A stretch of DNA of 44,609 bases from a virus (taxonomy: Duplodnaviria; Heunggongvirae; Uroviricota; Caudoviricetes), in the IMG/VR virus record IMGVR_UViG_3300045988_011059, positions 1 to 44,609 of that record, one strand, 5' to 3'. The notes beneath the pieces are model-generated. The model was not told the origin of the DNA. It ran no database searches and saw nothing but the letters and a program-made list of their open reading frames with translations. Shown here in pieces: positions 1-44,609 of this stretch; position 1 is the first letter of the stretch, and every line of letters starts with the position of its first letter. The translations under genes were made by a program, and so were the position numbers.

Positions 1-89
1 ATTTTTTTTATCTATTTTCTGTAATGACTAGTTGACTATTACCTACGACCATATTATATCTACTCCATCGACAACGAGAACGGAGTAGA
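1..89. repeat. 89-bp direct terminal repeat, identical to 44521..44609
   Basis: Exact identity of the first and last 89 nt of the window, read directly; contains a promoter-like element and abuts a terminator hairpin. Confidence 0.95.
32..60 (+). promoter_or_regulatory. Sigma70-like promoter (TTGACT-N17-TATATC) inside the terminal repeat
   Basis: TTGACT at 32-37, 17-nt spacer, TATATC at 55-60; lies upstream of the first small gene (ATG 94). Confidence 0.5.
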
Positions 90-7254: not shown

Positions 7255-7305
7255 CTAATTGTAAATGTTGGAATAAACTATTCGAATAGTTGACTTTTCA
7301 CTAAA
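7255..7305 (+). promoter_or_regulatory. Putative regulated promoter: ATGTTGGAATAA box, palindrome ACTATTCGAATAGT, then TTGACT
   Basis: Read directly; ATGTTGGAATAA recurs at 8045-8056 upstream of the scaffold gene. Confidence 0.35.
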
Positions 7306-16756: not shown

Positions 16757-16785
16757 ATAGTACCCTATTATATCGGGGTGTGCAA
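16757..16785 (-). promoter_or_regulatory. Early-type promoter TTGCAC-N17-TACTAT (minus strand)
   Basis: Reverse complement reads TTGCACACCCCGATATAATAGGGTACTATTCAC, near-identical over about 33 nt to the promoter at 39230-39258. Confidence 0.55.
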
Positions 16786-16892
16786 GTAGTGTGCTAGAAT
16801 AAGTTTGCGCCTAGTGTCGCACACGAAAAGCGGGTGGTTCCCGTCTGGCGCGTCAACCTTAACCTGTAACCTCTTAACCAAAGGACTAAAGA

Positions 16893-17671: not shown

Positions 17672-19976
17672 TACGGCTTCCCTAATCGCCAGAGTAAAAA
17701 CTGAAGGGGCTGACGTCGCTGCCAAACAGCTTGACGCTATGGCGGCATCCGCAGACCGGGCGGACACATCTGTAAACAAACTAACGCCGGATGTTAATAA
17801 AGTTAACACCGCCACCTCTAAAGCAGCGTCCGACGGTTTCGCTAAGTTCCGTAACGCTGCTGGGCAGGTTGGTTTCCAGGTGCAGGACATGGTAGTCCAG
17901 TTGCAATCCGGTACGTCTGCATTCGTTGCGATAGGGCAGCAAGGTTCCCAACTTGCTGGCGCTTTCGGCCCTGGTGGTGCGGTGCTCGGGGCGGTAATCG
18001 CTCTAGCATCAGCAATTGGTGGTGTCCTGTACAAATCACTAACCGAAGCAGAAGGCAGTTCAAAAGACCTCGAAGCTGCGCAGAAGCAGTTAAAGGATAC
18101 TTTCCAGCAAACGGCATCTGGCTCCCTCGAACTGACAGACGGCCTTATCCAGCTTACCCAAATCAGCAGAGAAGCGGCGGAGACTCAGCTTGCTCTGGCT
18201 AAGGCTAACGCAGACCTTATCGCGCAGCAAACAGCTAAAGCTGTCCGCGAGGACGCCGAGTCATGGGAGACATGGAAAGCCTCCACGGCATCCGCTATTA
18301 GCCAGTACGATGCATTGGTCTCTAAGGGTGCGGATGTAGGCGACACGTTAGAAAAACTTGGCGGCACTTACGAGGGTAACATCGTAGGCGTCAACATGCT
18401 GGCGCAGAATATAGCGGAGCTTAGCAGTAAGTTCGGGGTTAACCGTGACCAGGCGCTGGAGATGATAGCGGCGCAGAGCGCGTTTAACAAAGAGCCAACC
18501 GCCGAGAATGCCCGCCGCATCGCCGATGTGTTTACCGACTGGCTCGGTAACACAAAACAGTTGAACCCGGAACTTATCCGCCTGACTGACAACGCCAACA
18601 AGAACGCCACGGCACTGGAGAACGCGGAGAAGTCAGCAAACGCGGCAGCAGAGGCCCAAAAGAATCTCGGTCGTAACGTTAACTCAACCACGCAGAGGTT
18701 CCAGGAACAGAACGAAGCTATCGTCAAGAATCAGCAAATTGCCATCTTAAGCGACCGCGAACGCATCCGGGCGCAAGCTGAACTGGACAAGCAGGCATTC
18801 GCTAAGCGTGAAGCTGTCACCAAAGAACAGATAGCCGCGTATAACGCAGCCCGTGACACGGAAGCACAGCAAGACATCGCTCGCATCGACGCGACCGAAA
18901 AAGCGAAGGCAGACCGCGAGGCTAAATCGAACGAGAAACGTCTGGCGGCGCAGGCCAAACGTGAAGAAACGGCGGCACAACGCCAGAAGAAAGCCGCGGA
19001 AGATTTCCTCGCTACGGTTGACCGTACAACCGGAGATGAAATTTCTCGCATCACGGCGGCCGAAGAGCAGAAACTGGCGAAACTTGAAGAGTTCAACCGC
19101 GCCGGAACGATAAGCCAGCAGCAGTATGAAAACGCCAAAACTCAGATTATGCTGGAGGCGGATACCGCACGGCAGCAAGAATTGGATAAGCGCGAGAAAG
19201 AACGGCAGGAGAAAAAGCAGAAAGGCGACGACTTCATGGCTCAGATTATTGGCCAGAACGCTACTGAGCTTGAGCTTCTCGACATCCAGGAGCAGCAGAA
19301 ACTGGCGGTCGCAGATAAGTACCGTGAGCAAGGGCTTATTAGTGAGAAGCAGTATCAGGCCGCGCTTAACGCCATCAACGAGCAATACGCCACCAAGCGT
19401 GCCGACGCAACGGCAACCGCCTTCGGTAACATGGCGTCAAACATCGGGTCTGCGTTGGGCGAGGCCTCTGGTGCGTATAAGGCATTCGCTATCGTACAGG
19501 CCACCATAGCCACGTACACCGCAGCTATCGAGGCGTACAAGTCCACGGCGGCTATCCCTGTAGTTGGCCCGTTCCTGGCCCCCGTAGCCGCTGCCGCTGC
19601 CGTTGGGGCGGGTATGGCGCAGGTTTCCGCTATCCGGTCCGCGCGTGAACAGGGCGGACAGTTATCCGCAGGGCAGGCTTCCACCATCGCAGAACGCGGT
19701 AAACCGGAAGTTATCATGCCGGCCGGCGCATCCCGTGTGCGCACCGCCCAGCAGATGAAAGAAATTATGGGGCAAAACGGGTCTTCTTCAGGCCCGTCTA
19801 ATGTTACTATCGTAAACAACACGAGTTCTCAAATCAGCAACGTATCCACCGAACAAGATGATGAAGGGCGTCTTCGTATCATCATCGAAGAGCAAGTGGC
19901 AGCCTCTTTGCAGAACAGCAACAGTAAGATTAGCAAGGCCCGCAAGGCCACAAGAAATGCGCCGGGGTTCAAGTAA
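17664..19976 (+). CDS. Tail tape measure protein
   Basis: About 770-aa Ala/Gln/Glu-rich coiled-coil protein with a hydrophobic segment, directly after the chaperone genes. Confidence 0.85.
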   Translation: MADTASLIARVKTEGADVAAKQLDAMAASADRADTSVNKLTPDVNKVNTATSKAASDGFAKFRNAAGQVGFQVQDMVVQLQSGTSAFVAIGQQGSQLAGAFGPGGAVLGAVIALASAIGGVLYKSLTEAEGSSKDLEAAQKQLKDTFQQTASGSLELTDGLIQLTQISREAAETQLALAKANADLIAQQTAKAVREDAESWETWKASTASAISQYDALVSKGADVGDTLEKLGGTYEGNIVGVNMLAQNIAELSSKFGVNRDQALEMIAAQSAFNKEPTAENARRIADVFTDWLGNTKQLNPELIRLTDNANKNATALENAEKSANAAAEAQKNLGRNVNSTTQRFQEQNEAIVKNQQIAILSDRERIRAQAELDKQAFAKREAVTKEQIAAYNAARDTEAQQDIARIDATEKAKADREAKSNEKRLAAQAKREETAAQRQKKAAEDFLATVDRTTGDEISRITAAEEQKLAKLEEFNRAGTISQQQYENAKTQIMLEADTARQQELDKREKERQEKKQKGDDFMAQIIGQNATELELLDIQEQQKLAVADKYREQGLISEKQYQAALNAINEQYATKRADATATAFGNMASNIGSALGEASGAYKAFAIVQATIATYTAAIEAYKSTAAIPVVGPFLAPVAAAAAVGAGMAQVSAIRSAREQGGQLSAGQASTIAERGKPEVIMPAGASRVRTAQQMKEIMGQNGSSSGPSNVTIVNNTSSQISNVSTEQDDEGRLRIIIEEQVAASLQNSNSKISKARKATRNAPGFK

Positions 19977-26763: not shown

Positions 26764-26901
26764 CTACTCTTCTGATAACTTCTCCAGTACATACGCCAGT
26801 TGCGCATTAGCGGCGTCTCGCTGTTGTCGTAGTCGTAGAACCTCTTCTTCGAGTTCTTTGATACGTTTTTGCAATGCCGGAATCGTGGATATGATGTTCA
26901 T
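26764..26901 (-). CDS. Hypothetical coiled-coil small protein (45 aa)
   Basis: Hand-translated; ATG overlaps the helicase stop (ATGA). Confidence 0.35.
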   Translation of the reverse strand: MNIISTIPALQKRIKELEEEVLRLRQQRDAANAQLAYVLEKLSEE

Positions 26902-28322
26902 TTCTTACTCCTTCTCTTCATATAATTAAGTAGTTCGTCCTGTACGGACCTTTTCTCGTCTGTACGCGCGGCGACAACTTCATCAAGAGTATCTCTGGCT
27001 ATTATTTGATAAATGAATACAGACCGTTTGTATCCAGATTGCATCTGCCTTACCGGGCCTATACGCTCGATAACCTGCAAATAATGTTCAAGGTTCCACC
27101 CCTGACTCATAAAGGCCATGTGGTGCCCGCCGTGTTGTAGCGACAGTCCGTGGCCTGCGGAGGCTGGGTGTATCAGGAGCATTGGTATTTCCCCGCGGTT
27201 CCACGCGTCCATCTGCTTATTACCCTTAGCGCCTTTAGAAAATGCCTGGGCCTGAGGGAATCGCTTAAGGATGCGCTCCAGTTCGTGCTTGAACTGATAC
27301 GCCACCAGTAACGGCGCACCCTGTAGCTCCTCAACAATTGACTCGAGTGCATCCAGTTTCGTGTCGTGCACTTTCTCCCAGTCTTTCGTTGCTTCACCAT
27401 CCGGCCCTGATACATACACGGCACCGGATGCGATCTGCAAGCACTTTGAGGTCTTCGCCGCGGCGTTAGCCGCTTCAACTTCTCCGCTCTCCAGTTCCGC
27501 GAATAACTTCTCCTCCATATCTATGTATGCCTGACGCGCTTTCTTCGGCAGGTCGATTTCAACCGGTACAATAATCGGCGCCTCGCAACCGAACCACTCG
27601 GCGGCGTCAATCGTGAGACTGATGTCCTTCATCTTCTGGTGAATTTCATTATCCGCACCAGGGCGGGCGTGGTATTCGCGCGCCATCGCCGACTTACCTT
27701 TCTGTACCGAGTTAAACCAGCGGTCCGTGAACGCTGTGTACGAAGAACCGAGGCGCTCACCCGCGTCGATAAACCAGTTCTGCCCCCACAAGTCTTTTAG
27801 TCCGTTTGGCGACGGCGTACCCGTCAGGTTGATGAAACGCTTAACCTTACCGAACGCAACCTTACTGAGCGCCTTCGCCCTCTTACTACCGCCTGAACGG
27901 CTGCGGAATGATTTCAGCTTCGTGCTTTCATCGGCGACAATAACCGTAAAAGGCCAGTCGTCTTTGCCGTAGTAGTCAATCAGCCACTCGATAACTTCGT
28001 AGTTGGTGCACACCACGTTAGCGTCAGACTCCAGCGCCGCGATGCGGCGCTTCTCTGAACCTGTTGCGTCTACAACATTCAGACACGGGAACCGCCATTT
28101 CTCTTGTTCTGCGGGCCACGTACCGGACGCAACTCGTAGCGGGGCAAGGATTAACACACGGTCGTCATCATTAAGTTGGCCGTTGCGGAACAGTCGGTTT
28201 AAAGCCCACAGTACGCTGCCAGTCTTCCCGGCACCCATGCTTGCCCATATGTTGCAGCGATGGTGCCGCAGCATGAACGAAGTCATGAGCTTCTGGTACT
28301 CTCGCCTTTGAAACTTAGACAT
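26898..28322 (-). CDS. SNF2-family helicase
   Basis: Walker A MGAGKTGS and DEAH-like DESTK motif; start at ATG 28322, not the track start. Confidence 0.8.
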   Translation of the reverse strand: MSKFQRREYQKLMTSFMLRHHRCNIWASMGAGKTGSVLWALNRLFRNGQLNDDDRVLILAPLRVASGTWPAEQEKWRFPCLNVVDATGSEKRRIAALESDANVVCTNYEVIEWLIDYYGKDDWPFTVIVADESTKLKSFRSRSGGSKRAKALSKVAFGKVKRFINLTGTPSPNGLKDLWGQNWFIDAGERLGSSYTAFTDRWFNSVQKGKSAMAREYHARPGADNEIHQKMKDISLTIDAAEWFGCEAPIIVPVEIDLPKKARQAYIDMEEKLFAELESGEVEAANAAAKTSKCLQIASGAVYVSGPDGEATKDWEKVHDTKLDALESIVEELQGAPLLVAYQFKHELERILKRFPQAQAFSKGAKGNKQMDAWNRGEIPMLLIHPASAGHGLSLQHGGHHMAFMSQGWNLEHYLQVIERIGPVRQMQSGYKRSVFIYQIIARDTLDEVVAARTDEKRSVQDELLNYMKRRSKK

Positions 28323-28998
28323 GATTAGCCTCGTAAACTGCTTTTGCGAAACCTCGCGGGGTGAGGCTGCGGATTGTTTTTGTTCTGGCGCTCTTGCCGC
28401 CCAGTTTAGCCCAGCCCGGATTATCTCCACTACCCGCGGCAACATCGGCAACGTCGGGCATAACAAACCCATTGCCCGCCCACAGGCACGTCTTTTTAAC
28501 ATAGGCATCTCGCGCTGGAATAACATCCGGAAACATTGGATGTGTGTCGTCTTCCGGTAGATAGCCGCCGTAATCGTGTGGGTCGAATACATAATCGGGC
28601 TTACGCCATAAAGATGAAAGAACGCTAACTGGGTTCTCAATCATATAAGGTACGTTGTACTTTTTAGCCAGACGCGCTGCCACTTTGCATGTAATCACGG
28701 CCTCTACCTGAAACGTTGGGTTCTTCTTGCGCTTAGCCTCGAAATGACGCGACCCACTAACGGCTAAATCTGTGCAAGGAGGGAACGCAAAAATAATATC
28801 CGGCGCGGCTTCGAAGTCGAATTTATTATCAATCCACGCGTTTATATAGTGGATGTTCTCGTGTTCAACCTTTGCACCCAATAGTGCGTAGTCGCCGTGG
28901 TCAGCGCCGTCGTAGTTGAAACAGTAGCAAGTATGGCCCGCTTCCGCCCACGGCTGGGCCATAAGGCCCGAACCGTCAAATAATGACCAGACAATCAT
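28315..28998 (-). CDS. DNA (cytosine-5)-methyltransferase-like protein, compact
   Basis: Motif I LFDGSG, motif IV PPCTD, motif VI ENP in canonical order; only 227 aa. Confidence 0.65.
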   Translation of the reverse strand: MIVWSLFDGSGLMAQPWAEAGHTCYCFNYDGADHGDYALLGAKVEHENIHYINAWIDNKFDFEAAPDIIFAFPPCTDLAVSGSRHFEAKRKKNPTFQVEAVITCKVAARLAKKYNVPYMIENPVSVLSSLWRKPDYVFDPHDYGGYLPEDDTHPMFPDVIPARDAYVKKTCLWAGNGFVMPDVADVAAGSGDNPGWAKLGGKSARTKTIRSLTPRGFAKAVYEANHV

Positions 28999-29186
28999 TT
29001 CAACACCAGAACTAACTCTTTACGCCCGAACGCCGTAATATTGCCGGTTACATCTTCGATAACCAGTTTACCGTTCGACTCGACGTACACCGTATCAACG
29101 GCAACAGGACGACGGGTCTTAACGTTGAAAATCATGTCGCCCGGTACGATGTCACGTGCTGGTTTGCGGTCATATTCGTGTTTCAT
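28995..29186 (-). CDS. Hypothetical protein (63 aa)
   Basis: ORF track; ATGA coupling. Confidence 0.5.
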   Translation of the reverse strand: MKHEYDRKPARDIVPGDMIFNVKTRRPVAVDTVYVESNGKLVIEDVTGNITAFGRKELVLVLK

Positions 29187-29206
29187 TTCTCAATTCCTTA
29201 TAGTTA

Positions 29207-29222
29207 AGGCCCCGAAGGGCCT
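29207..29222. terminator. GC-rich stem-loop between minus-strand genes
   Basis: AGGCCC-CGAA-GGGCCT hairpin. Confidence 0.35.
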
Positions 29223-29225
29223 GTA

Positions 29226-29480
29226 TTAGTTAGATAATTCTGCTTGAACTTGCTTAATAAGTTCCCCAGCCGTTGTGAAGTCTACCGACAGCCCTTTAGC
29301 GACGTCTTCTGCCAGCACTTTGCGGCCAACTGACCCGAAACCCAGGATACGGTTTACTTCCGAAACCTTCATAGACCATGAGTAATTAACTGACGCCCCT
29401 GTGTATTTACCGATACGAACAGATGAGTCGATTGAACCAATAATCATAGTGTTTACTGACAGTTGAAGTTCGATAGCCAT
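29226..29480 (-). CDS. Hypothetical protein (84 aa)
   Basis: ORF track. Confidence 0.5.
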   Translation of the reverse strand: MAIELQLSVNTMIIGSIDSSVRIGKYTGASVNYSWSMKVSEVNRILGFGSVGRKVLAEDVAKGLSVDFTTAGELIKQVQAELSN

Positions 29481-29481
29481 T

Positions 29482-29799
29482 TTATAATTCCTTATATTGT
29501 TGGGGTATGTACTTACTATAATAGTCCGCTACTAGGGTGTCAACCTGTTTTATCGAACCAACTACAAAAACATTTGCGCCACGTTTACGCATCCGCTCGT
29601 GTTCCCGTAACTGGTGAGGGTCTGGCTTCGTGTTTTCGTCTTTCTTAACCTCGACGAACCAGACGATGCCGTTGGGGAGAATTACCAGCAGGTCGGGAGC
29701 GCCGGAACGTCCTTCGTAGGAAAGTTTACGAACGAGGCCGCCAATGGCCTCGAATCGGTCTTTTGCGTATTTCTGGATGCGCCCCTCAGGCGTACTCAT
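29482..29799 (-). CDS. VRR-NUC domain nuclease
   Basis: PD-(D/E)XK-type motif PDLLV...FVEVKK in a roughly 105-aa protein. Confidence 0.75.
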   Translation of the reverse strand: MSTPEGRIQKYAKDRFEAIGGLVRKLSYEGRSGAPDLLVILPNGIVWFVEVKKDENTKPDPHQLREHERMRKRGANVFVVGSIKQVDTLVADYYSKYIPQQYKEL

Positions 29800-29883
29800 C
29801 TATACACCCCTCGCGTTTCGTGTGTTCAATCCCGCAGCGCGGACAGATTCGACAGTCTTCTTCGTAGAACCAGTAGATTTTCA

Positions 29884-30012
29884 TTCCAGCACCCACAGAT
29901 AAATTGCGATGAACATACCCAATATGGCAACCATCATGCCGTATTGACCCTCGTGACAGTAGACACCGGCGGCGAATCCCGCCAGTACCGCGATAATCAG
30001 TTTACTTAGCAT
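29884..30012 (-). CDS. Putative small membrane protein (42 aa)
   Basis: Hand-translated; two hydrophobic segments; ATG overlaps the polymerase 3' end; a 32-aa CxxC ORF (29789..29887) follows with ATGA coupling. Confidence 0.3.
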
Positions 30013-32254
30013 AACGCTTCATCTCAGCACCTTCCGCTACAAGAGGGAACCCCTCTGCCCATTCCGGTAATTCGCACATCAACCGCCCAAGCTCTGCGAC
30101 ATTGTATTCCGGTGCATCTGGTGTCTCGCAGATAATTTCATCGTGAACATGAAGTACAATTGGGTAGCCGTTTGCCTCTACGTTCAGCAGCGCATTAGCC
30201 AACAAATCACGGCACAGCGCTTGGGTGCAGTTTTCCACGAGTTTACCGGAATATGTGTACTGGAAACCCCACTGACGGGTTAACTGATTCTCCCCCTGGT
30301 ACTTGATGCGCACGTTAGTAGTCACCTTTCCATCTTCGTCTGTCTCTTTCGACACGCTTAACCCGACGCCCGGGTATGACATAACGCGCCCCGACGGCAA
30401 CGTCATGCGCAACCACCAGCCCGCGACTTTGTTGCCGTTGTTGTCTGTCTCTACGTTGCGCGAAAATTTAACGCCGCGCGGCCCTGCGGTGAACTCTTTG
30501 CCTGGATTGCGGATAGCCGCCATAGCTGCATCTTCAATATCTCGCCAGAACGCTACTGTTTCCGGGTGAGACTCGCGCCACATGCGCTTGATAGCGTCAC
30601 AGGTACGCCACACTTTCTTATCAAGAATATACGATGGTCGGTCATCCTTTTCACCAGGCCGCGGCGGTCGCTTGGCTTCCTGAATACGCGCCCACTCATA
30701 GCCCCGTGCAGTAGCCGCCCATATGTGGTCGGGGAAAGTTCCGTCCATTGTTTTAGCCATATCAACAAGGTTTAAGCCGAGGTTTTTAGCAAACTGAACG
30801 AAAGCACCAACGCCACCCGCATAGCCGAGGCCCAATTCACATGCTTTGCCAATCTGGCGCAGGTCACTACGGCTTTCGAGAATGTAATCGGGGTCCATTC
30901 CGAACATCTTACCTGCGGTTACGCAGTAAATATCCAATCCCGCACGGAAGGTATCGAGAGCGGTTTCTTCTCCCGCCAGCCAGGCCAACCCACGACCCTC
31001 AACGTTAGAGTAGTCGGCAACGACAAACTTATGCCCAGCCTCAGGTATAATGCAGCTACGCACCGTCGATGCCGTTAGCTTGGCTACGTCAAAACGGCGA
31101 TGAGCACGGCCTTTAAACAACAGGTCGATTCCGTAGGACAATGGGTGTGTTACTCTCCACCAATCCTTCTCTGACATCCAGTCATAACGGACTTTCTTCT
31201 TTTTATTCTTCGGGTCGTCGTGATAGTACCCGCGCGCCAGGTTCTGCGGCTGGAAGCCTTTGCCAGCAAATCGTAACGTACGCTTAGCCCCGCCGTACTG
31301 GATGCAACCGCGGCGACGGTCGTCCGACGAGCGGCCTAATAGCAATGGGTTATATTTCGTTGACGCGGTGGACGCGGCCCCGAGGCGCATTTCGATAATC
31401 GCGCGGGCGTCGTCCGGTAAATCATCGTCTGCCAACAGGTCGTTAAGCGTCGACTTCTGCGCGTTGTGGATGCGGTGCGCCGGTGCTAGTTCACGTAGAA
31501 TCGGAAGGAAGTCTTTACCTGTGAGCGAGCCGCCGTATTTACGTTGGGCTTCTTCCTGTAACTGTGCCTTGTGCTTCTCCACGGCTTCAATCGCGGCTTC
31601 CGCCAGCGCTACGTCAACCTTAAACCCACGATCGTTGATTAGCTGGTCGAGTTCCAGTACACGGTCCTCGAACTCAGAGTTACCCCAACACGGCAGCTTA
31701 TGGAAGACTTCACGCACCGATGTAATGTCGCTAATACCATACTTAATAAACCAGGCCCACTCTTCTGGGTGCGTATCCGCGGTGTAGCGACGTATTTTGT
31801 AGTTCTTCGGCGTCGGTTTAGAAAAACGCTGAATCAGAGCCTTGCCGCGTTTATCCTTCGCGTTTTCTGCTGACACACCAAGTACTTCGCACAACGCCGC
31901 CAGTGACCCGGGTAGCGCGTGTCGAAACGCAAGAATCATCGTATCAATGATGTTAGTTGGGTGAATTTTGTAACCCCAGCAGCGCTCTATGACGAGCCTG
32001 TCAAATTGAAGGAAATTGTGCCCAACAAGTTTCAACCCGTAATTCGGCTTTTCAAGGCCCGCAAGGCAACGTCGCAGTTCTCTCGGTATATTTCTGCCTT
32101 TTGTGGGGTCGTAAACCTCCACTGGCTCATCGTTAAACGCGTAAGTGGCGAGAATAATCTCTGTTGACGGGTCTTCCGAGTACCGGTAAGCCCCAACCTT
32201 TTTCAAATCGGCTTCGCTAAAAGTTTCAGTATCTTTAAACAGTAAGTCTTGCAT
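30002..32254 (-). CDS. DNA polymerase, family A, with 3'-5' exonuclease domain
   Basis: Exo motifs FKDTETF and HNFLQFD; polymerase motif A DYSNVEGR, motif B RQIGKACELGLGYAGG, motif C LHVHDE. Confidence 0.9.
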   Translation of the reverse strand: MQDLLFKDTETFSEADLKKVGAYRYSEDPSTEIILATYAFNDEPVEVYDPTKGRNIPRELRRCLAGLEKPNYGLKLVGHNFLQFDRLVIERCWGYKIHPTNIIDTMILAFRHALPGSLAALCEVLGVSAENAKDKRGKALIQRFSKPTPKNYKIRRYTADTHPEEWAWFIKYGISDITSVREVFHKLPCWGNSEFEDRVLELDQLINDRGFKVDVALAEAAIEAVEKHKAQLQEEAQRKYGGSLTGKDFLPILRELAPAHRIHNAQKSTLNDLLADDDLPDDARAIIEMRLGAASTASTKYNPLLLGRSSDDRRRGCIQYGGAKRTLRFAGKGFQPQNLARGYYHDDPKNKKKKVRYDWMSEKDWWRVTHPLSYGIDLLFKGRAHRRFDVAKLTASTVRSCIIPEAGHKFVVADYSNVEGRGLAWLAGEETALDTFRAGLDIYCVTAGKMFGMDPDYILESRSDLRQIGKACELGLGYAGGVGAFVQFAKNLGLNLVDMAKTMDGTFPDHIWAATARGYEWARIQEAKRPPRPGEKDDRPSYILDKKVWRTCDAIKRMWRESHPETVAFWRDIEDAAMAAIRNPGKEFTAGPRGVKFSRNVETDNNGNKVAGWWLRMTLPSGRVMSYPGVGLSVSKETDEDGKVTTNVRIKYQGENQLTRQWGFQYTYSGKLVENCTQALCRDLLANALLNVEANGYPIVLHVHDEIICETPDAPEYNVAELGRLMCELPEWAEGFPLVAEGAEMKRYAK

Positions 32255-32315
32255 ATTATTTTCGACCCTTAGTAAAAAGGCCCAATGAAGGGCCTTAGTT
32301 AAATTGATTCAGATA

Positions 32316-32942
32316 TTAGCGGCGACGACGCTCGCGGCGTGGTGCTTCATCTTCTTCGTCATCTTCCAGGTCATCAACACTCGCGGCGACTTTAGAGCCC
32401 CCGAATGCTTTACCCTCACCAACGTACTTAATTGCCAGCAGGTTAACGCCGAGGACTTTGTATTTCTGGCTGAACCAGATTTCAACGCTTACGTTAGCCA
32501 CACAGCCGCTGTAAACCTGTTCGCCTTCAATCTGTTCGCCGTCTACATTGAAGTCCTGTTCTACCTGAGTCTCACCTTTTTTAGAGGTTACAATCAGCGG
32601 CTGTTTCTGTGCCTTCGCTTTGAAGTAGAAGCCCTCCGGGAAGTCTTCAAACGGATTGTCGCGCTCGGCAATGTCTTTAATCGCGCATTTATCCATGTGC
32701 TTACCTTCGCCGTAGTTGGACTTCATCCACTTCTCGGCAGCGGCTGCACCCAACGCTTCTTCAACTACAGCGTAGACAGTGTCGTATAGCGCGTCGATTT
32801 GAGCATGGTCAGACGGCAGGATAATAGTCGCGCTGTACTGCCCTTTAGTGATTGAGCCATCATCGTTTTCACGGTCTTTTTCACGTTCGAATACGTTAAC
32901 CCATGCAGTGTTTACTTTACGCAGATTCAGTTTCAGTCCCAT
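32316..32942 (-). CDS. Putative single-stranded DNA-binding protein
   Basis: 208-aa protein with acidic C-terminal tail (DDLEDDEEDE) next to the polymerase; family assignment by context. Confidence 0.45.
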   Translation of the reverse strand: MGLKLNLRKVNTAWVNVFEREKDRENDDGSITKGQYSATIILPSDHAQIDALYDTVYAVVEEALGAAAAEKWMKSNYGEGKHMDKCAIKDIAERDNPFEDFPEGFYFKAKAQKQPLIVTSKKGETQVEQDFNVDGEQIEGEQVYSGCVANVSVEIWFSQKYKVLGVNLLAIKYVGEGKAFGGSKVAASVDDLEDDEEDEAPRRERRRR

Positions 32943-32998
32943 TTCTCGATTCCTCAGTTTTCAGTTTACTCCGGGAAGCTGCCCGGCCAGTGATTAGA

Positions 32999-33027
32999 AC
33001 TATAATAGCTAACTATTCAGGTGTCAA
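32999..33027 (-). promoter_or_regulatory. Sigma70-like promoter TTGACA-N17-TATAGT (minus strand)
   Basis: Reverse complement TTGACACCTGAATAGTTAGCTATTATAGTT; spacer carries the GAATAGT motif. Confidence 0.55.
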
Positions 33028-33031
33028 CACT

Positions 33032-33205
33032 TTATTTAAGTTTCTTCGGAACTACCTTATAAATATAGGGCTGCACCGCCTCATGCTTCGAGTTCTTCTC
33101 TTCTGCAATTTTGTCGGCGTCGGCGCGTTTAGCGTGAACAGAAACAATATCAAGTTCTTGAATAGAATATCGGCGGTGATACCGCGTGAGAATATAAACC
33201 ATCAT
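33032..33205 (-). CDS. Hypothetical protein (57 aa)
   Basis: ORF track frame from ATG 33205 (ATGA overlap with the exonuclease stop). Confidence 0.45.
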   Translation of the reverse strand: MMVYILTRYHRRYSIQELDIVSVHAKRADADKIAEEKNSKHEAVQPYIYKVVPKKLK

Positions 33206-34443
33206 TCCAAATCCTCCTCTGTTACCTGATTCCACTCAGGACGCTTGTCGTCCGCCGTTGCAACACATGGTGCGCCAGGCTTACGGGTAATGAAGTCTTT
33301 TAGCTCCTCCTCCGGTATGACTTTAACCGCTTCGGTAGGTGACATGAGCACGTCTTTAGTCAGCTTGTAGCCGTATTTCTCGTATACCGCCTCAGCATCC
33401 TTCCACGCACGATTGCCCATCTTACCTTCAACCAGCTTGTACCCCGGCACTTTCTTACCGGAATGCAACGCGGCGGACATCGCTTTCTCGACCTTGTCGA
33501 TGTGCTGGCGCAACAATGGCAACTTCTCATACTCAGCTACGAGTTGCTCTGGTGTCAGTTCCAGCGCAAAGTCGTCTTCAAGTTCTTCCGCCAGCACCGC
33601 GTTAACGGTTTTTGTACGCGCGGCACACTGTTCCGAGAACCGGCACCACTGACAACCGTCTACTGACGGCTTGAAGTCAGATGCTTTCAGGTTCTTCTTG
33701 CCTCGGTAATACGCGTCAAGAGCTAACAGTGCGCGTTTCTGTGCAAACTTAGCGAACAGTTCCAGACCTTCAACCGAGATGTCCCACTCCGACGCACCGC
33801 CCGCGTACGGCTGAAAGATGACCAGGCGAACAACTGTGATGTTATAACGTCTCTTGAGTCGGCGATAAACACCGAGAGCGTAAAGCATAAGCTGCTTGTT
33901 TTCTTTCGCTTCAACACGATGCCGTCCAGTTTTAAGGTCGCCAATAATGAGCATGTGCTCGTCGGTGTTCGCCAGTTCCTGAACGGCAACAAGGTCGGCG
34001 GTTCCGAATGTCTCAACGCCTTCGTAGCCTGGATGCAATACCTCAGTAAGATTGACACGCATCTCGAGTTTGGCGTAAGTCGCTACATCGATAACAGCTT
34101 TGCAGTAGTCTGTGTACTTGCGCACCTGCTCAATCATGTCAGCCGTAATCAGTACCGCGCATTTCATCGGGCTGATTAGCGCCTTAATCTGGCCTTTACC
34201 CTCGTCCAGCACGTAAGCACCGACTTCACGCTCTAATGGTAGCGCAGTGCCGCGGATATAGGCGTTGAGATGTACCTCAGCTATGGTGTGCATAGCCGTA
34301 CCTAATACCGCGGCTTTACCGGACGTGTTAGGAATATCTTTTTCACAGGCCAGAGAAGCCGGGCAGGTTAACCACTTTTTAGCGCCTGACGGTGATAGTA
34401 ATGCGTGTACATCGTTATTGCCACCGCGTTCTTTTAGAATCAT
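33202..34443 (-). CDS. PD-(D/E)XK exonuclease with Cys4 cluster (Cas4/RecB-like)
   Basis: GTADLVAV...IGDLKTG...QLMLYALG nuclease core; N-terminal Cys and C-terminal CQWC...C cluster; start at ATG 34443. Confidence 0.75.
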   Translation of the reverse strand: MILKERGGNNDVHALLSPSGAKKWLTCPASLACEKDIPNTSGKAAVLGTAMHTIAEVHLNAYIRGTALPLEREVGAYVLDEGKGQIKALISPMKCAVLITADMIEQVRKYTDYCKAVIDVATYAKLEMRVNLTEVLHPGYEGVETFGTADLVAVQELANTDEHMLIIGDLKTGRHRVEAKENKQLMLYALGVYRRLKRRYNITVVRLVIFQPYAGGASEWDISVEGLELFAKFAQKRALLALDAYYRGKKNLKASDFKPSVDGCQWCRFSEQCAARTKTVNAVLAEELEDDFALELTPEQLVAEYEKLPLLRQHIDKVEKAMSAALHSGKKVPGYKLVEGKMGNRAWKDAEAVYEKYGYKLTKDVLMSPTEAVKVIPEEELKDFITRKPGAPCVATADDKRPEWNQVTEEDLE

Positions 34444-34712
34444 GCCCTGCTCTCCCACTGGTCAATTAAATGCCGTGTCTTATGCTCGCAGTGCATAGCC
34501 CAGCCATACATCGACTCAAAGACATAAAAGTCAGGTTTGGCGAAAGTCGTGCGCTTAATCTGCGACACATGACGGCCTATGTCTTTAGGCCGCGGTACTT
34601 TGCCTAAGTACGCCATCTCTTCCATCTGGTGTGCCTCTGACGGCGCACGCAATAACCATAGCGCCTCTGTGTTATCTCGCCTGTCTACGGCGCGGTAGAG
34701 TTGGTAAATCAT
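34440..34712 (-). CDS. Hypothetical protein (90 aa)
   Basis: ORF track; overlapping starts and stops. Confidence 0.5.
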   Translation of the reverse strand: MIYQLYRAVDRRDNTEALWLLRAPSEAHQMEEMAYLGKVPRPKDIGRHVSQIKRTTFAKPDFYVFESMYGWAMHCEHKTRHLIDQWESRA

Positions 34713-34996
34713 TGCGCCTTCTCCCGCATTTTCAGAAAGACAATCATAGCGGCGCGTAGGGGGTTTTCGTGCGTACTTTTGGTGAAAGATGCAGAGTGGT
34801 ACGCGCGATATGTAAACGTATGCCGGTTAGCCGTAACGCATTCAATTGATATGTGATTATCAATTATTATGGGCCATGCATCAGATGGGTTGTTGCAGTA
34901 GTCTTTGGCCTTAAACGAATTCAATCCTGAAATTTGCATAACCTCTGCGTGTACACAGCAGTTAATCTCAAAATCGCTCATATCTTCGTATTTCAT
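34709..34996 (-). CDS. Hypothetical protein (95 aa)
   Basis: ORF track. Confidence 0.5.
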   Translation of the reverse strand: MKYEDMSDFEINCCVHAEVMQISGLNSFKAKDYCNNPSDAWPIIIDNHISIECVTANRHTFTYRAYHSASFTKSTHENPLRAAMIVFLKMREKAQ

Positions 34997-35039
34997 ATTT
35001 CCGACCCTCAGTTAAAGCGGCCCGAAGGCCGCAAGATAG

Positions 35040-35537
35040 TTATTCTTCTTCGAAATACTTGTTCTTGATTGCCGTCAGGCGTTCCAGATATTCAGCCAGG
35101 TCTTCGTCTTTAATCGCGGCAATCTTCATTTTCTTACCGGTGAACTCTTCCAGTAGTTCATCAGAATCGTCGCACGCGGCGTCGCTCGGACCTTCGTTAA
35201 TGGCGTCGTCGATAGCCTGAATCTGGTCACGCAGAGACTGATAATCGACTTCTTCTTTCTCTTCTTCCGGCTCTGGCGTAGGTTCCTCTACTTTAGCTTT
35301 ACGCGGCTTGCGTTTTGGCTTCTCTTCTTCTGCCGGTTTAGTGTCTACGAGGTCTTCACCTTCGACCGGGATTTCTTTTGTTTCTTCGGCTTTTACAACG
35401 GCACGAACTACGTCGGCTTTAGTCTCTGCGGGTAACCCATCTACTTCGGAAACGACAACTTGTTTCGCGCTATTCGCAGCAATAAGTTCATGTGCAACTA
35501 CGAAACGTTCCAGTAATACTAAGAATTTCTCTAACAT
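35040..35537 (-). CDS. Highly acidic protein, possibly disordered
   Basis: 165 aa with long Glu/Asp/Pro/Lys-rich tracts; promoter-proximal in the leftward operon. Confidence 0.55.
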   Translation of the reverse strand: MLEKFLVLLERFVVAHELIAANSAKQVVVSEVDGLPAETKADVVRAVVKAEETKEIPVEGEDLVDTKPAEEEKPKRKPRKAKVEEPTPEPEEEKEEVDYQSLRDQIQAIDDAINEGPSDAACDDSDELLEEFTGKKMKIAAIKDEDLAEYLERLTAIKNKYFEEE

Positions 35538-35710
35538 TTTTCTTTCTCCAGTTCTCGTTTAATCATTTCTGTCGTTCTGATGGCCCAGCGGTCTACCGGT
35601 TTACCATCTTCGAACACTATAAAAAGCTCTTCTGGCCTTACGGCGCATTCTGATTGAAGTTTGCAACCGTCACATTTGCTAAACCTCCCGCACCAGTCTT
35701 TAACATCCAC
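35531..35710 (-). CDS. Putative Cys-rich small protein (59 aa, GTG start)
   Basis: Hand-translated; GAGAGGA RBS before GTG; CGRFSKCDGCKLQSEC; stop overlaps the acidic-protein start. Confidence 0.3.
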   Translation of the reverse strand: MDVKDWCGRFSKCDGCKLQSECAVRPEELFIVFEDGKPVDRWAIRTTEMIKRELEKEKC

Positions 35711-35740
35711 GCTATGTATCCTCTCGTTTGGTATGGGTTA

Positions 35741-35769
35741 ACTATAATAGCGAACTATTCACGTGTCAA
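35741..35769 (-). promoter_or_regulatory. Sigma70-like promoter TTGACA-N17-TATAGT (minus strand)
   Basis: Reverse complement TTGACACGTGAATAGTTCGCTATTATAGTT; near-identical to the promoter at 32999-33027. Confidence 0.55.
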
Positions 35770-35833
35770 TGGGCTTTTCTAAAATAATTAATATGGTACT
35801 ATTCACATATCAACTGACTAAGGAGTAAATGAC

Positions 35834-36049
35834 ATGCAACCATCTGAACTAGGTATCCGCGTAGAACAACGCCGTAAAGAACTCGGCATCTCCCAGCGCC
35901 GTCTGGCGGTCCTGGCTGGCGTTTCCCAGGGCGCGATTAACCAGCTTGCGCTCGGGGTAACTCAGGACGTCCGACCGGCGACGCTGTTCAAGCTGGCGGA
36001 AGTGCTACAAGTAGACGCCAAGTGGCTGGCGTTCGGTGAAGGGGCTTAA
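35834..36049 (+). CDS. XRE-family helix-turn-helix regulator (Cro/CI-like)
   Basis: GISQRRLAVLAGVSQGAINQL is a canonical HTH; AAGGAG RBS; only plus-strand gene inside the leftward block. Confidence 0.8.
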   Translation: MQPSELGIRVEQRRKELGISQRRLAVLAGVSQGAINQLALGVTQDVRPATLFKLAEVLQVDAKWLAFGEGA

Positions 36050-36064
36050 TGCCCCTTTCTTTTT
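36041..36064. terminator. Bidirectional rho-independent terminator
   Basis: GGGGC-TTAAT-GCCCC plus T-run; the regulator's stop codon lies in the loop. Confidence 0.65.
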
Positions 36065-36066
36065 AC

Positions 36067-38334
36067 TTATTCCAAATCATCCTCGGTCACCACCAGCATT
36101 TCATTCGGTTCGTATAGTGTCTTCGGAATCTTGTTATCCGTTATCCGGGTATTCAGCCTGTAACGGCCTGGTATTATCTGATTGTTTTCGTCGGTCCCTG
36201 GCACAAGATACCCCGCCTCAACCATTTTCTTAATCTTCCCGCGTTCTATGGCTTCTTTGGAGTTAAACGCCTTTGCGTTAGGGTCGGACTGTGCGAGCTT
36301 ATTCGCTGCGGCTACCGTGATGCCCTCGTTGCCGTTGTAGGTTCCTTCCGCCAGTTCAAACGCCGCCAGTATCGTGGCTTCTGAACTGTTGACGGCGTTC
36401 TCTACGGTTTTACGTACGTTTTCTTTACCTTCCTTCGTCAGTCCTTCTTCCCGCTCTTTCTCCTCGTCAGTCTTAAACGGCTCGAAGCCCCACGGCATCA
36501 GCACAAGCGCCTTGTGTGGCTCAGGCAGGTCCAGGTTTACGATTGTGCCGTATTCCTCTGTGCTACCCAGGAACTCAACTGCACGGTACTCTTTCGGCGG
36601 CGGGGCTTCACGGAACTGTACCGACTCCAGAACCATGCCAACTGTCTTCTGTTGTGGCCCGTGCTTAAATTTCGAGTGATATACGTTTATCTGACGGTCG
36701 GTAGCGCGTTCAATTGTCAGTTCCACGTCGACGCCAGCGTACAGCGCCCCACTACCACGGGCTTTCTTTCCGCCCTTCGGTGTGTGGTGGACAACACCTA
36801 CCGCGGCTTTAGTCGCATCACGTACTTCTTTCAGGATGGCGATAACTTTACCCATACCGATTGCCGTTGATGAGCTGTTCTCGTCGAACTTATCAATCGT
36901 CAGGGCCAGCGTCTGGTTAAGGGTGTCGAACGCAACCATGCCGATTGGCTCGTCGCCAGCAGTTTCGCGCATTAACTTAATCAGGCTTTTAAGTTTTCCG
37001 ACCTCACCCATGTCTATGACATGTACATAATCTTTACCCTCCACGCCGTATTTAGCCGCGAGCGCATCAATACGTGTACGTGTGGCCGCGCCGCCCTCAC
37101 CGTCTATATAGAAATGGTGGCAACGCTGGGTGTCCGCCCCCGCGAACCGGTATCCGGCGGCGCTGAGGTACATCATCCCCAGCGTATAAAACGATTTGTA
37201 CGTGCCAGATTCCCCGACGATATCCCAGATACAATCCGACGGCATGTACCCTTCGACGACGAAATCAGCCTTTACCGGTTCTGGTAACTCGTCCTCCTCT
37301 GAGTCCTCGTCGTCTTCCAGGTCGTCGAGACTGCATGAAACAGATTCACGTGCACCCCAGCCGATTGCCTCGGCTACTTCACTGAACGGCAGACCAGTCG
37401 CATCGCACGCGTATTTCCACACCTCTTTCGGCGACATGCCTTCGGTTGCCGTAATGTCGGTGTCGTGAATCATGGTTACGTTCGGCGCTTCGTACCCCTC
37501 TCGCGGGAAACACAGCAGAAAGTCATCCGGGCGCGGCGTCGGGTCGCTGTAGTTCTCTGCGTGTTCCGGTGTAGCTGGCATCTTAAGGCCGCGCGGTGTC
37601 ATGATGCCGCCGTACTCGAACGCCAGTGCTTCGAACGCATCTGTAAACGCGGTGCGCAGTTCTTCTGGTATCTGGTAATCCGATGCGCTGCTAACGTCAA
37701 CGGCGGGGATGCCTTCCAGTAATTCGTCCGGGTCAATCAGGTCGTTGCGGCGCGACCAGATAACATGAGAGCCAACTGGCGGCAGGTACATCGGCTGCGA
37801 CAGAGTGAACCCGCTGCGGTCCGCGCCCATGCCTTTGAAGAAGTGCTCAAGCAACCCATGACGAACACGGATGATGTCGCCGACTTCAACCGGACGGGCC
37901 AGCGGCATGACGACGCGAAAGCGCGGGGACTCGTCGGTATGTGATGCCGTGGTATAGAGGCACATCGCACGGCGGCTTCGCTTAACCAGACGCACCGCTT
38001 CCTGATACTCTTCCGGCGTTGCGCTGTCGAAGTCCAGATACGCCAGCGACGATTTGCTTACAGATGCGTCGCAGCGATAGAAAAAGCCTTTACGCGCTTG
38101 CTTAAAGTCACCGGTTTCCGGGTCTTTCACGGTGCTGTGTGTAGAGTCACACGCGGCGGTGATATAGCCGGGCGCTGTCTTCGGGTTAATCCCATCACGA
38201 ACAGCATCAAGCGGCTGGATTAACGCTTTCAGGTCGTCCAGTGTTGCCGTGTGTGTGGTTCTGACGTTTATATCCTTTTTCTCTGCTCGCGCGTTGCGGC
38301 GTGACCACGAGTAGGATAAAATTACATCGGACAT
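36067..38334 (-). CDS. Primase-helicase (primase/polymerase N-domain plus RecA-like ATPase)
   Basis: Walker A GESGTYKSF and Walker B MVAFD in the central domain; 755 aa; AAGGA RBS. Confidence 0.8.
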   Translation of the reverse strand: MSDVILSYSWSRRNARAEKKDINVRTTHTATLDDLKALIQPLDAVRDGINPKTAPGYITAACDSTHSTVKDPETGDFKQARKGFFYRCDASVSKSSLAYLDFDSATPEEYQEAVRLVKRSRRAMCLYTTASHTDESPRFRVVMPLARPVEVGDIIRVRHGLLEHFFKGMGADRSGFTLSQPMYLPPVGSHVIWSRRNDLIDPDELLEGIPAVDVSSASDYQIPEELRTAFTDAFEALAFEYGGIMTPRGLKMPATPEHAENYSDPTPRPDDFLLCFPREGYEAPNVTMIHDTDITATEGMSPKEVWKYACDATGLPFSEVAEAIGWGARESVSCSLDDLEDDEDSEEDELPEPVKADFVVEGYMPSDCIWDIVGESGTYKSFYTLGMMYLSAAGYRFAGADTQRCHHFYIDGEGGAATRTRIDALAAKYGVEGKDYVHVIDMGEVGKLKSLIKLMRETAGDEPIGMVAFDTLNQTLALTIDKFDENSSSTAIGMGKVIAILKEVRDATKAAVGVVHHTPKGGKKARGSGALYAGVDVELTIERATDRQINVYHSKFKHGPQQKTVGMVLESVQFREAPPPKEYRAVEFLGSTEEYGTIVNLDLPEPHKALVLMPWGFEPFKTDEEKEREEGLTKEGKENVRKTVENAVNSSEATILAAFELAEGTYNGNEGITVAAANKLAQSDPNAKAFNSKEAIERGKIKKMVEAGYLVPGTDENNQIIPGRYRLNTRITDNKIPKTLYEPNEMLVVTEDDLE

Positions 38335-38392
38335 ATTATAATTCCTTCAGCAAGTAATTTGGCCTCGGCGTTCACCGCGTCGGGGCTTTCTT

Positions 38393-38626
38393 TTATTCCA
38401 GGTCTTCTAAAGTAGCGGTCATTCCGCGAACTTCAGCAACAGCACTATATTTCCCACCAACATTTTTCACGACACCAGATTTAACCAGCACCTTCAACGA
38501 CCCTTCAATAATGGCGGAACTATAGTACCTAAAATAACTACGACGCAAGTCCATAACGCTGCACGACCCTTTTTTACGTGTTAGCGAAACGACAGCCGTA
38601 AATACCCGGGACTGGAACTCGGTCAT
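38393..38626 (-). CDS. Hypothetical protein (77 aa)
   Basis: ORF track; ATGA-coupled to the upstream HTH gene. Confidence 0.5.
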   Translation of the reverse strand: MTEFQSRVFTAVVSLTRKKGSCSVMDLRRSYFRYYSSAIIEGSLKVLVKSGVVKNVGGKYSAVAEVRGMTATLEDLE

Positions 38627-38793
38627 TTTACATTCTCCTTAATCCACGCTTCCACTTTCTCCGGGTCAAACGTACCTGGCTGCCGGCGGCCCATAATGCG
38701 GGTACAACAATCAGGGAACTTCCCACTCTTTAACCAGTTATTAAGCGTACGACGAGTAACCCCAATACGCTCAGCTACCTCATTCTGCGTCAT
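38623..38793 (-). CDS. Small HTH DNA-binding protein (AlpA/excisionase-like)
   Basis: MTQNEVAERIGVTRRTLNNWLKSGKFP HTH; ATG 38793 lies downstream of the predicted promoter, the track TTG start does not. Confidence 0.6.
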   Translation of the reverse strand: MTQNEVAERIGVTRRTLNNWLKSGKFPDCCTRIMGRRQPGTFDPEKVEAWIKENVK

Positions 38794-38825
38794 TCTCAAA
38801 CCCTCATTATCAGTTAACGAAACCA

Positions 38826-38854
38826 AGTATACATTGCGAATAATGGGAAATCAA
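38826..38854 (-). promoter_or_regulatory. Sigma70-like promoter TTGATT-N17-TATACT (minus strand)
   Basis: Read on the reverse complement; sits just upstream of the first leftward gene. Confidence 0.5.
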
Positions 38855-39150
38855 ACATAATCGCACCTATTGACATTATGAAAATCTTCGTTTAAGGTGC
38901 TTCTATATCTTAGTTACTTTGATTCCTGTTCACCTTGTAATACCCGCTTGAAACGCAGCGGCGCACCAGCGCCAGCGAAGTGTTAAGCGGCAGATTACTG
39001 AACATAAGAATTATCGTAACTTTCCTTCCTTAGTATCTCCGGTTGCCCTGGGCAAGCTCTATTCTCATCGGCAGCATATCTCTTAAGTATATGATAATTA
39101 AAAGTTTCTATAGTTGCCGTAAGCAAGGTAGAGAGTACTTCACTCCGCTG

Positions 39151-39170
39151 GGGTGGGCTAACGCCCACCC
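39151..39170. other. Perfect GC-rich hairpin GGGTGGGC-TAAC-GCCCACCC
   Basis: 8-bp inverted repeat read directly, inside the 465-bp divergent control region. Confidence 0.6.
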
Positions 39171-39229
39171 ACTGCGTTGCGTACTCTTTTAAGAAACGAA
39201 CGAATCACAACGGCAACGTAACTATTCTC

Positions 39230-39258
39230 TTGCACACCCCAACATAATAGGATACTAT
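39230..39258 (+). promoter_or_regulatory. Early-type promoter TTGCAC-N17-TACTAT
   Basis: TTGCAC 39230-39235, TACTAT 39253-39258; flanked by ACTATTC motifs. Confidence 0.55.
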
Positions 39259-39292
39259 TCACTTATCGAAACGAGACATAAGGAATTTAGAA

Positions 39293-41007: not shown

Positions 41008-41036
41008 TTGCACGCTGAAATAGAATAGGCTACTAT
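41008..41036 (+). promoter_or_regulatory. Early-type promoter TTGCAC-N17-TACTAT
   Basis: TTGCAC 41008-41013, TACTAT 41031-41036; same architecture as 39230-39258. Confidence 0.55.
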
Positions 41037-41067
41037 TCATTTACACAGACGAGAGGAGAGACAGAAG

Positions 41068-44499: not shown

Positions 44500-44529
44500 C
44501 CCGGCCCTGACCCAGCCGGGATTTTTTTT
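44500..44529 (+). terminator. Rho-independent terminator abutting the terminal repeat
   Basis: CCCGGC-CCTGACCCA-GCCGGG hairpin followed by ATTTTTTTTA, which is the start of the 89-bp repeat. Confidence 0.7.
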
Positions 44530-44609
44530 ATCTATTTTCTGTAATGACTAGTTGACTATTACCTACGACCATATTATATCTACTCCATCGACAACGAGAA
44601 CGGAGTAGA
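44521..44609. repeat. Second copy of the 89-bp terminal repeat
   Basis: Identical to 1..89. Confidence 0.95.

Follow-up and report, generated by a model that had tools for sequence, protein, structure and literature searches.

The XRE regulators of phage 434 are the closest described systems with which the locus analysed here can be compared. The 434 Cro protein (PDB 2cro, 3cro and 1zug) and the DNA-binding domain of the 434 repressor share the same five-helix XRE fold, and in this phage Cro has a CI partner, six operators are grouped as the OR1-3 and OL1-3 triplets at two loci, and lysogeny takes place. Lytic phages that keep cro-like genes are already known, for example the virulent Streptococcus thermophilus phages (PMC5338259), which lack an integrase yet keep a cro-like regulator and are themselves suspected to descend from temperate ancestors (prophages). 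These phages are unrelated to the present one and infect Gram-positive hosts, and the passages of that report dealing with the regulator do not describe a genome-wide operator set. In Kagunavirus, the papers on phages fBC-Eco01 and Golestan (PMC9825357, PMC7203180) list PHIRE repeats, seven copies per genome with the consensus tgAATAGTa-ccTATTat-T, as 'phage-specific promoters', and the fBC-Eco01 paper ascribes them to a phage-encoded RNA polymerase (PMC9825357). The passages of these papers on the repeats mention neither their palindromic nature nor a link with a Cro-like gene. Compared with these systems, the gene studied here (35834..36049, plus strand) would be a functional 434-class Cro-type regulator in a strictly lytic siphophage, repressing via dispersed palindromes, a reading to which we give a probability of roughly 0.65.

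The window, i.e. the whole stretch of 44,609 nucleotides that was analysed, repeats its first 89 bases at 44521-44609 and is therefore a complete genome, about 44,520 bp long, whose ends overlap. Its DNA is 90-93% identical to that of Kagunavirus phages of Escherichia (subfamily Guernseyvirinae), among them EC3-1, fFiEco03 and K1ind2/3. Kagunavirus relatives have been described as lytic and without integrase (PMC9787291), and the BASEL collection paper likewise calls them lytic. Pfam scans of nearly all large ORFs, a set to which the 775-aa ORF 17649-19976 (whose size and position suggest the tape-measure gene) does not belong, revealed no integrase, recombinase, S24-peptidase (CI-type) or RNA polymerase domain. 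The components of a lambdoid lysis-lysogeny switch were sought in the same set: neither Peptidase_S24 nor a long HTH protein was found, and integrase and recombinase gave zero Pfam matches. The initial annotation, which had seen neither an integrase nor a CI-length repressor, was thus right for the ORFs scanned. With no CI partner and no integrase, the regulator would serve temporal control rather than a choice between lysis and lysogeny. The phage does encode other small DNA-binding proteins, including an excisionase-like HTH_17 protein (38623-38826, minus strand) and possibly a 63-aa protein (28995-29186), which may be another site-binding factor. An Rfam scan of the window gave zero matches.

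The 71-aa product was initially assigned to the Cro/CI-type HTH proteins, and this assignment is borne out by its match to Pfam HTH_3 (PF01381) over residues 11-65, with an E-value of 1.2e-12 and a score of 48.1 bits against a cut-off of 23. Among proteins of solved structure, its closest relative is 434 Cro, which is also 71 aa long (42% identity over the full length, E 4.9e-7), followed by the 434 repressor and P22 c2. The AF2 model (pLDDT 79.7) contains five helices (5-17, 21-28, 32-39, 48-57 and 62-66) and no further domain, in line with the single-domain, five-helix bundle of about 70 aa that characterizes 434 Cro. When this model was submitted to Foldseek, 2cro, 3cro and 1pra were matched with TM-scores of 0.73-0.80, and the structural matches included SinR-N, the 434 repressor, 434 Cro, P22 c2, HipB, HigA, C.AhdI and C.BclI. 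Residue Q32, invariant in the alignment, aligns with Q28 of 434 Cro, the glutamine that opens the recognition helix. In 434 complexes, this glutamine contacts the outermost adenine of the operator, and the outermost base of the 14-mer palindrome described below is also an A. The rest of the recognition helix differs, however (QGAINQ here, QQSIQL in 434), as does the half-site (AATAG here, ACAA(G/T) in 434).

Two copies of ACTATTCA are found at 35754-35761 and 35798-35805, as parts of a direct repeat of 25 nt (80% identity, 44-bp spacing). The initial annotation had described two operator-like motifs flanking the gene; in fact both are located upstream of it, and, while the elements are real, each of them covers no more than the right half of AATAG-N4-CTATT, a palindrome of 14 bp. 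The motif ACTATTCAC occurs four times in the window, against 0.31 expected, and none of 100 shuffles reached four. The first copy of ACTATTCA belongs to candidate operator O_A, AATAGCGAACTATT (35746..35759), an exact palindrome. It fills the spacer, and reaches the first -10 base, of the leftward promoter P_L1 (TTGACA-17-TATAGT, 11/12, 35741..35769, minus strand), the best sigma-70-like promoter of the region, predicted to drive ral and the recombination and replication genes. The second copy belongs to candidate operator O_B, AATATGGTACTATT (35790..35803), whose left half is imperfect yet conserved. O_B overlaps the -10 hexamer TACTAT (35797-35802) of the putative own promoter of the gene, read from the sequence as an extended -10, TGGTACTAT (35794..35802, plus strand), in which TGG precedes the hexamer and for which no good -35 was found. 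The overlaps first proposed, with the leftward promoter (35769..35741) and with the own -10, thus appear correct as far as promoters can be read from sequence. An alternative own promoter, TTCACG-16-TAAAAT (35758..35785, plus strand), is a weak consensus match (9/12) and would place O_B at about +1.

The palindrome is by no means restricted to this locus. Five exact and six one-mismatch copies of AATAG-N4-CTATT were found, against 0.99 expected, and none of 100 shuffles reached 11; one of the six one-mismatch matches is a duplicate due to the window ends, so that the 11 matches correspond to about 10 distinct sites. For a longer form, TGAATAGTnnnCTATTAT, seven copies with at most two mismatches were counted, where 0.1 would be expected. 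The exact copies all lie between genes, and every copy of the palindrome is located on a promoter-like site, in one of three registers relative to the -10 and -35 hexamers. The helicase-primase operon contained no exact or one-mismatch copy. The initial annotation had suggested an autoregulated switch: the site on the own -10 agrees with this suggestion, but the sites do not form a local pair, and a set of about 10 sites on promoters throughout the genome points to a global regulator rather than to a two-operator switch.

In the first register (class 1, TTGACA-17-TATAGT), the spacer is filled by the palindrome, which extends to the first -10 base. The three promoters concerned, at 35769, 33027 and 29543, are all leftward and are the top three sigma-70 matches in the right half of the genome. 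Besides P_L1, these are the promoter at 32999..33027 (minus strand, 11/12), upstream of the SSB and DNA polymerase genes, with candidate operator AATAGCTAACTATT at 33004-33017, found at the same relative position in relatives, and that at 29515..29543 (minus strand, 11/12), with a one-mismatch candidate operator at 29520-29533. In the second register (class 2, TTGCAC-17-TACTAT), the palindrome is shifted by 6 bp and covers the -10; the own upstream region of the gene belongs here, its TACTAT being the -10 of this class. The other class-2 promoters are located at 39230-39258 (plus strand), with candidate operator AATAGGATACTATT at 39246-39259 and, 34 nt beyond it, the first rightward early gene (ATG 39293); at 16785..16757 (minus strand), upstream of the 14156-16728 block, with candidate operator AATAGTACCCTATT at 16756-16769; and at 41008-41036 (plus strand), with a candidate operator at 41024-41037 that is a perfect 16-bp palindrome, GAATAGGCTACTATTC. 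The relative positions of the sites at 39246-39259 and 41024-41037 are conserved in relatives. Three sites (D, E and G) had first been read with poor -35 boxes (TCGATA, GTTACA and TGTGTA), and this reading was rejected because their other strand offers a clean TTGCAC-17-TACTAT that fits the gene direction; their orientation was changed accordingly. A CRP-like reading of TGTGA in site B was also rejected, since the right half does not fit. In the third register (class 3), degenerate copies have a TTGA centre that creates a TTGACT -35. These are the candidate ACTAGTTGACTATT at 27..40, before the packaging and structural genes, which, owing to the overlap of the window ends, appears again at 44547-44560 and which has syntenic counterparts in SE2 and Cornellvirus, and the weak candidate AATAGTTGACTTTT at 7285..7298, intergenic within the structural module. 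A pure early-gene repressor would have no obvious need for such degenerate sites on structural-gene promoters.

As in 434, two-fold 14-bp candidate operators of 5-N4-5 geometry thus overlap promoter cores, including one on the protein's own promoter, which speaks for the presence of sites rather than for their occupancy. Unlike in 434, there is no CI partner, there are no OR1-3/OL1-3 triplets and there is no lysogeny, and about 8-10 sites, single or as one pair, are distributed over at least seven promoters genome-wide, compared with six at two loci in 434.

The sites were also compared among relatives. A scan of IMG/VR returned 59 loci, which were fetched with peptide patterns derived from the recognition helix. 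In 36 loci of Kagunavirus type and 10 of Jerseyvirus, the sites show a constant relative arrangement, and hardly any sites lie outside it. In the Kagunavirus-type loci, their positions relative to the start of the gene are about -2.2 to -3.2 kb, -88, -44, +3.4 to +3.8 kb and +4.4 to +5.2 kb, and the imperfect left half of O_B, AATAT, is present in all 36. The two halves of O_A, AATAG and CTATT, are invariant in 35 unique upstream regions of Kagunavirus type, while the O_A centre takes six forms (CGAA, CTAA, TGAA, CAAA, CGAG and CTAG) and the linker between O_A and the -35 varies in both sequence and length. Jerseyvirus shows the same layout with TAATAG-N4-CTATTA, and its phage SE2 has seven sites against 1.1 expected. 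The Kagunavirus and Jerseyvirus proteins are 51% identical and their recognition helices differ (SQGAINQ and SQSLITH, respectively), but the AATAG core is common to both. In the unconstrained half, the outer flank distinguishes GAATAG in Kagunavirus from TAATAG in Jerseyvirus (22/22), and protein-site covariation therefore comes down to one flanking base. Enrichment is weak in Cornellvirus, where 10 degenerate sites were counted; about 3.5 are expected, and shuffled sequences gave at most 7-8. A single palindrome was rejected for the Cornellvirus operators, which mix ATTAG, AATAC and AATAG halves, and de novo whole-genome palindrome counts, swamped by GC-rich coding 5-mers, were uninformative for this genus.

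Several observations connect the protein with the palindrome. Two sites are located at its own gene, and the 434 and P22 operators have the same geometry, 14 bp as 5-N4-5. When the small HTH proteins and the small ORFs nearby were compared, no HTH protein except the XRE protein turned up in Cornellvirus as well. More distant homologues were found in temperate-phage switch regions of IMG/VR (loci L057, L059, L060, L061, L062 and L065), which, having been retrieved with recognition-helix patterns, are not an unbiased sample. Their CI proteins are related to those of Variovorax phage VarioGold, Burkholderia phage KL4 and 434, and their HTH domains are homologous to that of the present protein (36-44% identity), with a recognition helix VSQGxIxQ or TQSAISH. 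The regulator is a CI-like repressor bearing an S24 autopeptidase domain in L057, L060 and L061, and a shorter protein (72-156 aa) in L059, L062 and L065; the window, by comparison, has the short form and dispersed sites. In all six loci, the palindrome class A[AT]TAG-N4-CTA[AT]T is clustered from -70 to -12 before the regulator gene, thus at the regulator's own promoter, as in the window. A second pair of palindromes, 25 bp apart, is located 0.7-2.4 kb downstream in four of these loci (L057, L060, L061 and L062). No further copy was present in the approximately 10 kb of these loci, in each of which about 0.04 exact copies are expected. In L060, the repressor gene adjoins a divergent Cro-like gene whose product shares its helix, TQSAISH, with the Cornellvirus protein. 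The Cro of Klebsiella phage RCIP0098 (45% identical) was also considered as a model for the site and rejected, as it is of true 434 type with ACAA-N6-TTGT operators, not AATAG; it helps to place the family, not the site.

It could be argued that the repeated element is nothing more than a promoter consensus specific to the phage, or that it is bound by some other factor, for instance the HTH_17 protein, the 63-aa protein or a host protein, with the XRE protein binding elsewhere. We find this doubtful. Every site does overlap a -10 or a -35, one half-site is partly fixed by the -10, and the two Kagunavirus papers mentioned above interpret as promoters repeats that are the same element as the AATAG-N4-CTATT sites reported here. 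Moreover, other small DNA-binding proteins are encoded, and in the coarse RNA-seq time course of Kagunavirus K1B4 (PMC12645636) the HTH_17 gene was classed as 'early'. However, no RNA polymerase domain was detected in the large ORFs scanned, and the palindrome keeps its sequence while it slides relative to the hexamers, taking three registers, which is the behaviour of a protein-binding site and not of a part of one promoter consensus. The half-site on the spacer side has no role for sigma-70, yet it is invariant. As to other factors, the HTH_17 and 63-aa proteins were not detected in Cornellvirus, and we know of no HTH_17/Xis-type protein that binds 14-bp palindromes of 5-N4-5 geometry. The CI/Cro proteins of the temperate homologues, by contrast, have the same class of palindrome in their own switch regions.

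We thus infer that it is the Cro-type protein that binds the palindromes, and that it represses by binding. From a functional point of view, a timing switch in a lytic phage, which the initial annotation had put forward as one option, is the best reading at the level of sequence evidence. Likely binding sites are present on most non-structural promoters, and the protein probably turns the early genes down. Host RNA polymerase would at first transcribe freely the units headed by near-consensus sigma-70 promoters. As the protein accumulates, its dimer would bind the 14-16-bp palindromes (G/T)AATAG-N4-CTATT(C/A) on the three strong leftward replication promoters and on the four TTGCAC-17-TACTAT promoters, including its own, and possibly on the two promoters with a site over the -35, and would occlude the -10, the spacer or the -35. 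The units turned down in this way would be those of replication, recombination, nucleotide metabolism and small early genes, which corresponds to the 'turn-off' role of Cro. In favour of this timing, the K1B4 RNA-seq study (PMC12645636) classed the orthologue of the XRE gene (K1B4_004) as 'middle'. At a higher concentration, the protein may repress its own promoter via the weaker O_B and so limit its own synthesis.

Repression rather than activation is deduced solely from the positions of the sites, and the protein might instead bind the palindromes as an activator or a dual regulator, or mainly exclude superinfecting relatives. In favour of activation, several operator-bearing promoters have imperfect hexamers, and the degenerate sites at 27-40 and 7285-7298 are located on promoters before structural genes; as for exclusion, a repressor made during infection would silence incoming genomes that bear the same operators. 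Sites in the spacer, the -10 or the -35 are nevertheless in positions of repression, whereas known sigma-70 activators sit at -41.5 or -61.5, and the perfect sites are on the strongest, near-consensus promoters, which makes such a role unlikely. Repression thus remains the preferred reading. A broader proposal can be attached to it, in which Guernseyvirinae possess a Cro-only clock with about 8-10 dispersed operators in three registers, acting on almost every early and middle promoter and, weakly, on the late ones, and conferring genus-specific immunity when supplied in trans. We put this forward tentatively, at somewhat below even chances.

A gene without function would be another explanation, in the form of a vestigial Cro inherited from a temperate ancestor and deprived of any present regulatory role; the initial annotation had likewise evoked a remnant. 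The genome, lacking CI and integrase, and the neighbouring genes (ral, NinX-like and exonuclease), which resemble a lambdoid early region, are compatible with such an origin, as is the precedent of the S. thermophilus phages. Decay, however, is contradicted by strong purifying selection: the 35 unique coding sequences give a pS of 0.24 and a pN of 0.021, hence a pN/pS of 0.085. The recognition helix GVSQGAINQLALG and the segment GVSQGAINQLALGVTQDV are constant, even among variants that are just 77% identical. The gene was found in 568 phage records from three genera, with identities of 93-100% in Kagunavirus, about 51% in Jerseyvirus and 39-41% in Cornellvirus, and essentially all the Kagunavirus records found keep it. 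This selection, the constant helix segment and this distribution indicate that the gene is functional. In addition, the operators are conserved genome-wide, and the gene has its own ribosome-binding site, AAGGAG (35820..35825, plus strand), located 8 nt before the ATG and conserved in 35 related upstream regions, as well as a terminator-like hairpin with a T-run around its stop codon (36038..36058, plus strand), which renders it monocistronic. A vestigial gene is therefore very improbable, while descent of this functional regulator from a 434-like temperate ancestor is plausible. Finally, an antitoxin of the HipB/HigA type or a restriction-modification controller (C) protein is scarcely credible, for although HipB, HigA, C.AhdI and C.BclI are among the structural matches and a cytosine methylase is encoded at 28315-28998, this ORF, the only methylase-like one, lies at a distance of 7 kb, the ORFs scanned revealed no restriction enzyme, no co-transcribed toxin or restriction gene is adjacent to this monocistronic gene, which lies between convergent and divergent replication genes, and the top sequence identities are to 434 Cro and the 434 repressor.

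The orientation of the gene can be considered in the light of the same relatives. As the initial annotation had observed, it is the only plus-strand gene in a leftward block of about 12 kb (26898-38826, 11.9 kb), according to both the ORF map and the annotation of close relatives. On its left is a divergent ral homologue and on its right the convergent helicase-primase gene, the leftward operon recalling a lambdoid early region through its ral and NinX-like genes and its exonuclease. In Cornellvirus (FSL SP-031 and Shemara), the same Cro-like gene comes first in a rightward operon that runs into helicase-primase and is divergent from the leftward recombination and replication genes, which is the lambdoid layout, with cro heading the rightward operon. 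The helicase-primase block is inverted in Kagunavirus and Jerseyvirus, leaving the Cro-like gene isolated on its own strand, and the lone opposite orientation of the gene reflects that inversion. No leftward terminator was found between the helicase-primase and XRE genes, and leftward transcripts may thus read antisense through the latter.

We found no functional study of this gene in the literature. While the persistence of cro-like genes in lytic phages was known, the novelty here lies in the operator, in its sites throughout the genome, in a different reading of the 'phage promoters' already published and in the inversion, which accounts for the orientation of the gene. This includes a correction to the literature, where the element was ascribed to a phage RNA polymerase, a gene not found in the ORFs scanned here. 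It also offers a testable regulatory map, made of one regulator, one 14-16-bp operator and about ten promoters, in a 44-kb phage that serves as a chassis for synthetic biology. Phages of Kagunavirus and Jerseyvirus have been widely put forward for therapy and biocontrol against E. coli and Salmonella, and the annotation of a 'repressor' in such phages repeatedly prompts the question of lysogeny. A Cro-type turn-off regulator without a lysogeny partner, if shown, would not be a marker of temperate growth, and the present case may illustrate how a temperate-type switch has been reduced to a timing device.

The regulator's candidate binding site, the palindrome AATAG-N4-CTATT, lies within a pair of cassettes, cTTGCACaccccaacaTAATAGGATACTATTCAc and cTTGCACaccccgataTAATAGGGTACTATTCAc, each of which combines promoter and operator in about 36 nt. 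They are located at 39229-39265 (plus strand) and 16750-16786 (minus strand), respectively, and are about 85% identical in sequence. The two are in opposite orientation, 22.5 kb apart, and dispersed inverted repeats such as these could be substrates for inversions. A different arrangement of the half-sites was found at 7276-7298 (AACTATTCGAATAGTTGACTTTTC), where they occur in reverse order, as CTATT-CG-AATAG. An AATAG-TTGA-CTTTT site, together with a TTGACT -35 element, immediately adjoins them.

A leftward block, 14156-16728 (minus strand), is set between the head and tail genes. It encodes a small protein along with a P-loop protein, an HAD/PNKP-type phosphatase and a metallophosphatase-like protein. 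In the Jerseyvirus phage SE2, the counterpart of the small protein, gp53, is annotated as "immunity to superinfection". An operator-bearing promoter appears to drive this block.

The orientation of the helicase-primase block indeed differed between genera. Comparison of window positions 36067-39229 with the corresponding loci of the Cornellvirus phages FSL SP-031 (L004, 11098-14291) and Shemara (L006, 35330-38332) showed that Kagunavirus and Jerseyvirus carry this block in inverted orientation compared with Cornellvirus, where the Cro-like gene and the helicase-primase gene are co-directional. The Kagunavirus and Jerseyvirus block also contains the excisionase-like HTH_17 gene and a small ORF, both of which are missing in Cornellvirus. 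Some 400 bp devoid of any convincing ORF (38827-39229) separate the HTH_17/helicase-primase operon from the rightward early promoter. This stretch includes a GC-rich hairpin at about 39150-39172, no Rfam match was found for it, and it could be the site of an origin or a leader.

The regulator and its neighborhood also varied among relatives. One metagenomic variant of the regulator, P0001, owes its length of 84 aa to a tandem duplication of residues 2-14 in the first helix (QPSELGIRVEQRR followed by QPSELGIRVEKRR). In the Kagunavirus phage EC3-1 (L001), an additional gene annotated as "helix-turn-helix domain-containing" (7076-7390) is inserted between the Cro-like gene and the helicase-primase gene; the window has no such gene.

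Comparison of both ends of the window showed that positions 1-89 are identical to 44521-44609. The window therefore represents a single genome, complete at about 44,520 bp, and the 89-bp overlap may reflect either terminal redundancy or wrap-around during assembly. Homologues of lambda Ral (35531-35710, minus strand; Pfam Ral, E 1.6e-30) and P22 NinX (34709-34996, minus strand) are encoded in the leftward operon and give the early region of this lytic phage a lambdoid flavor.
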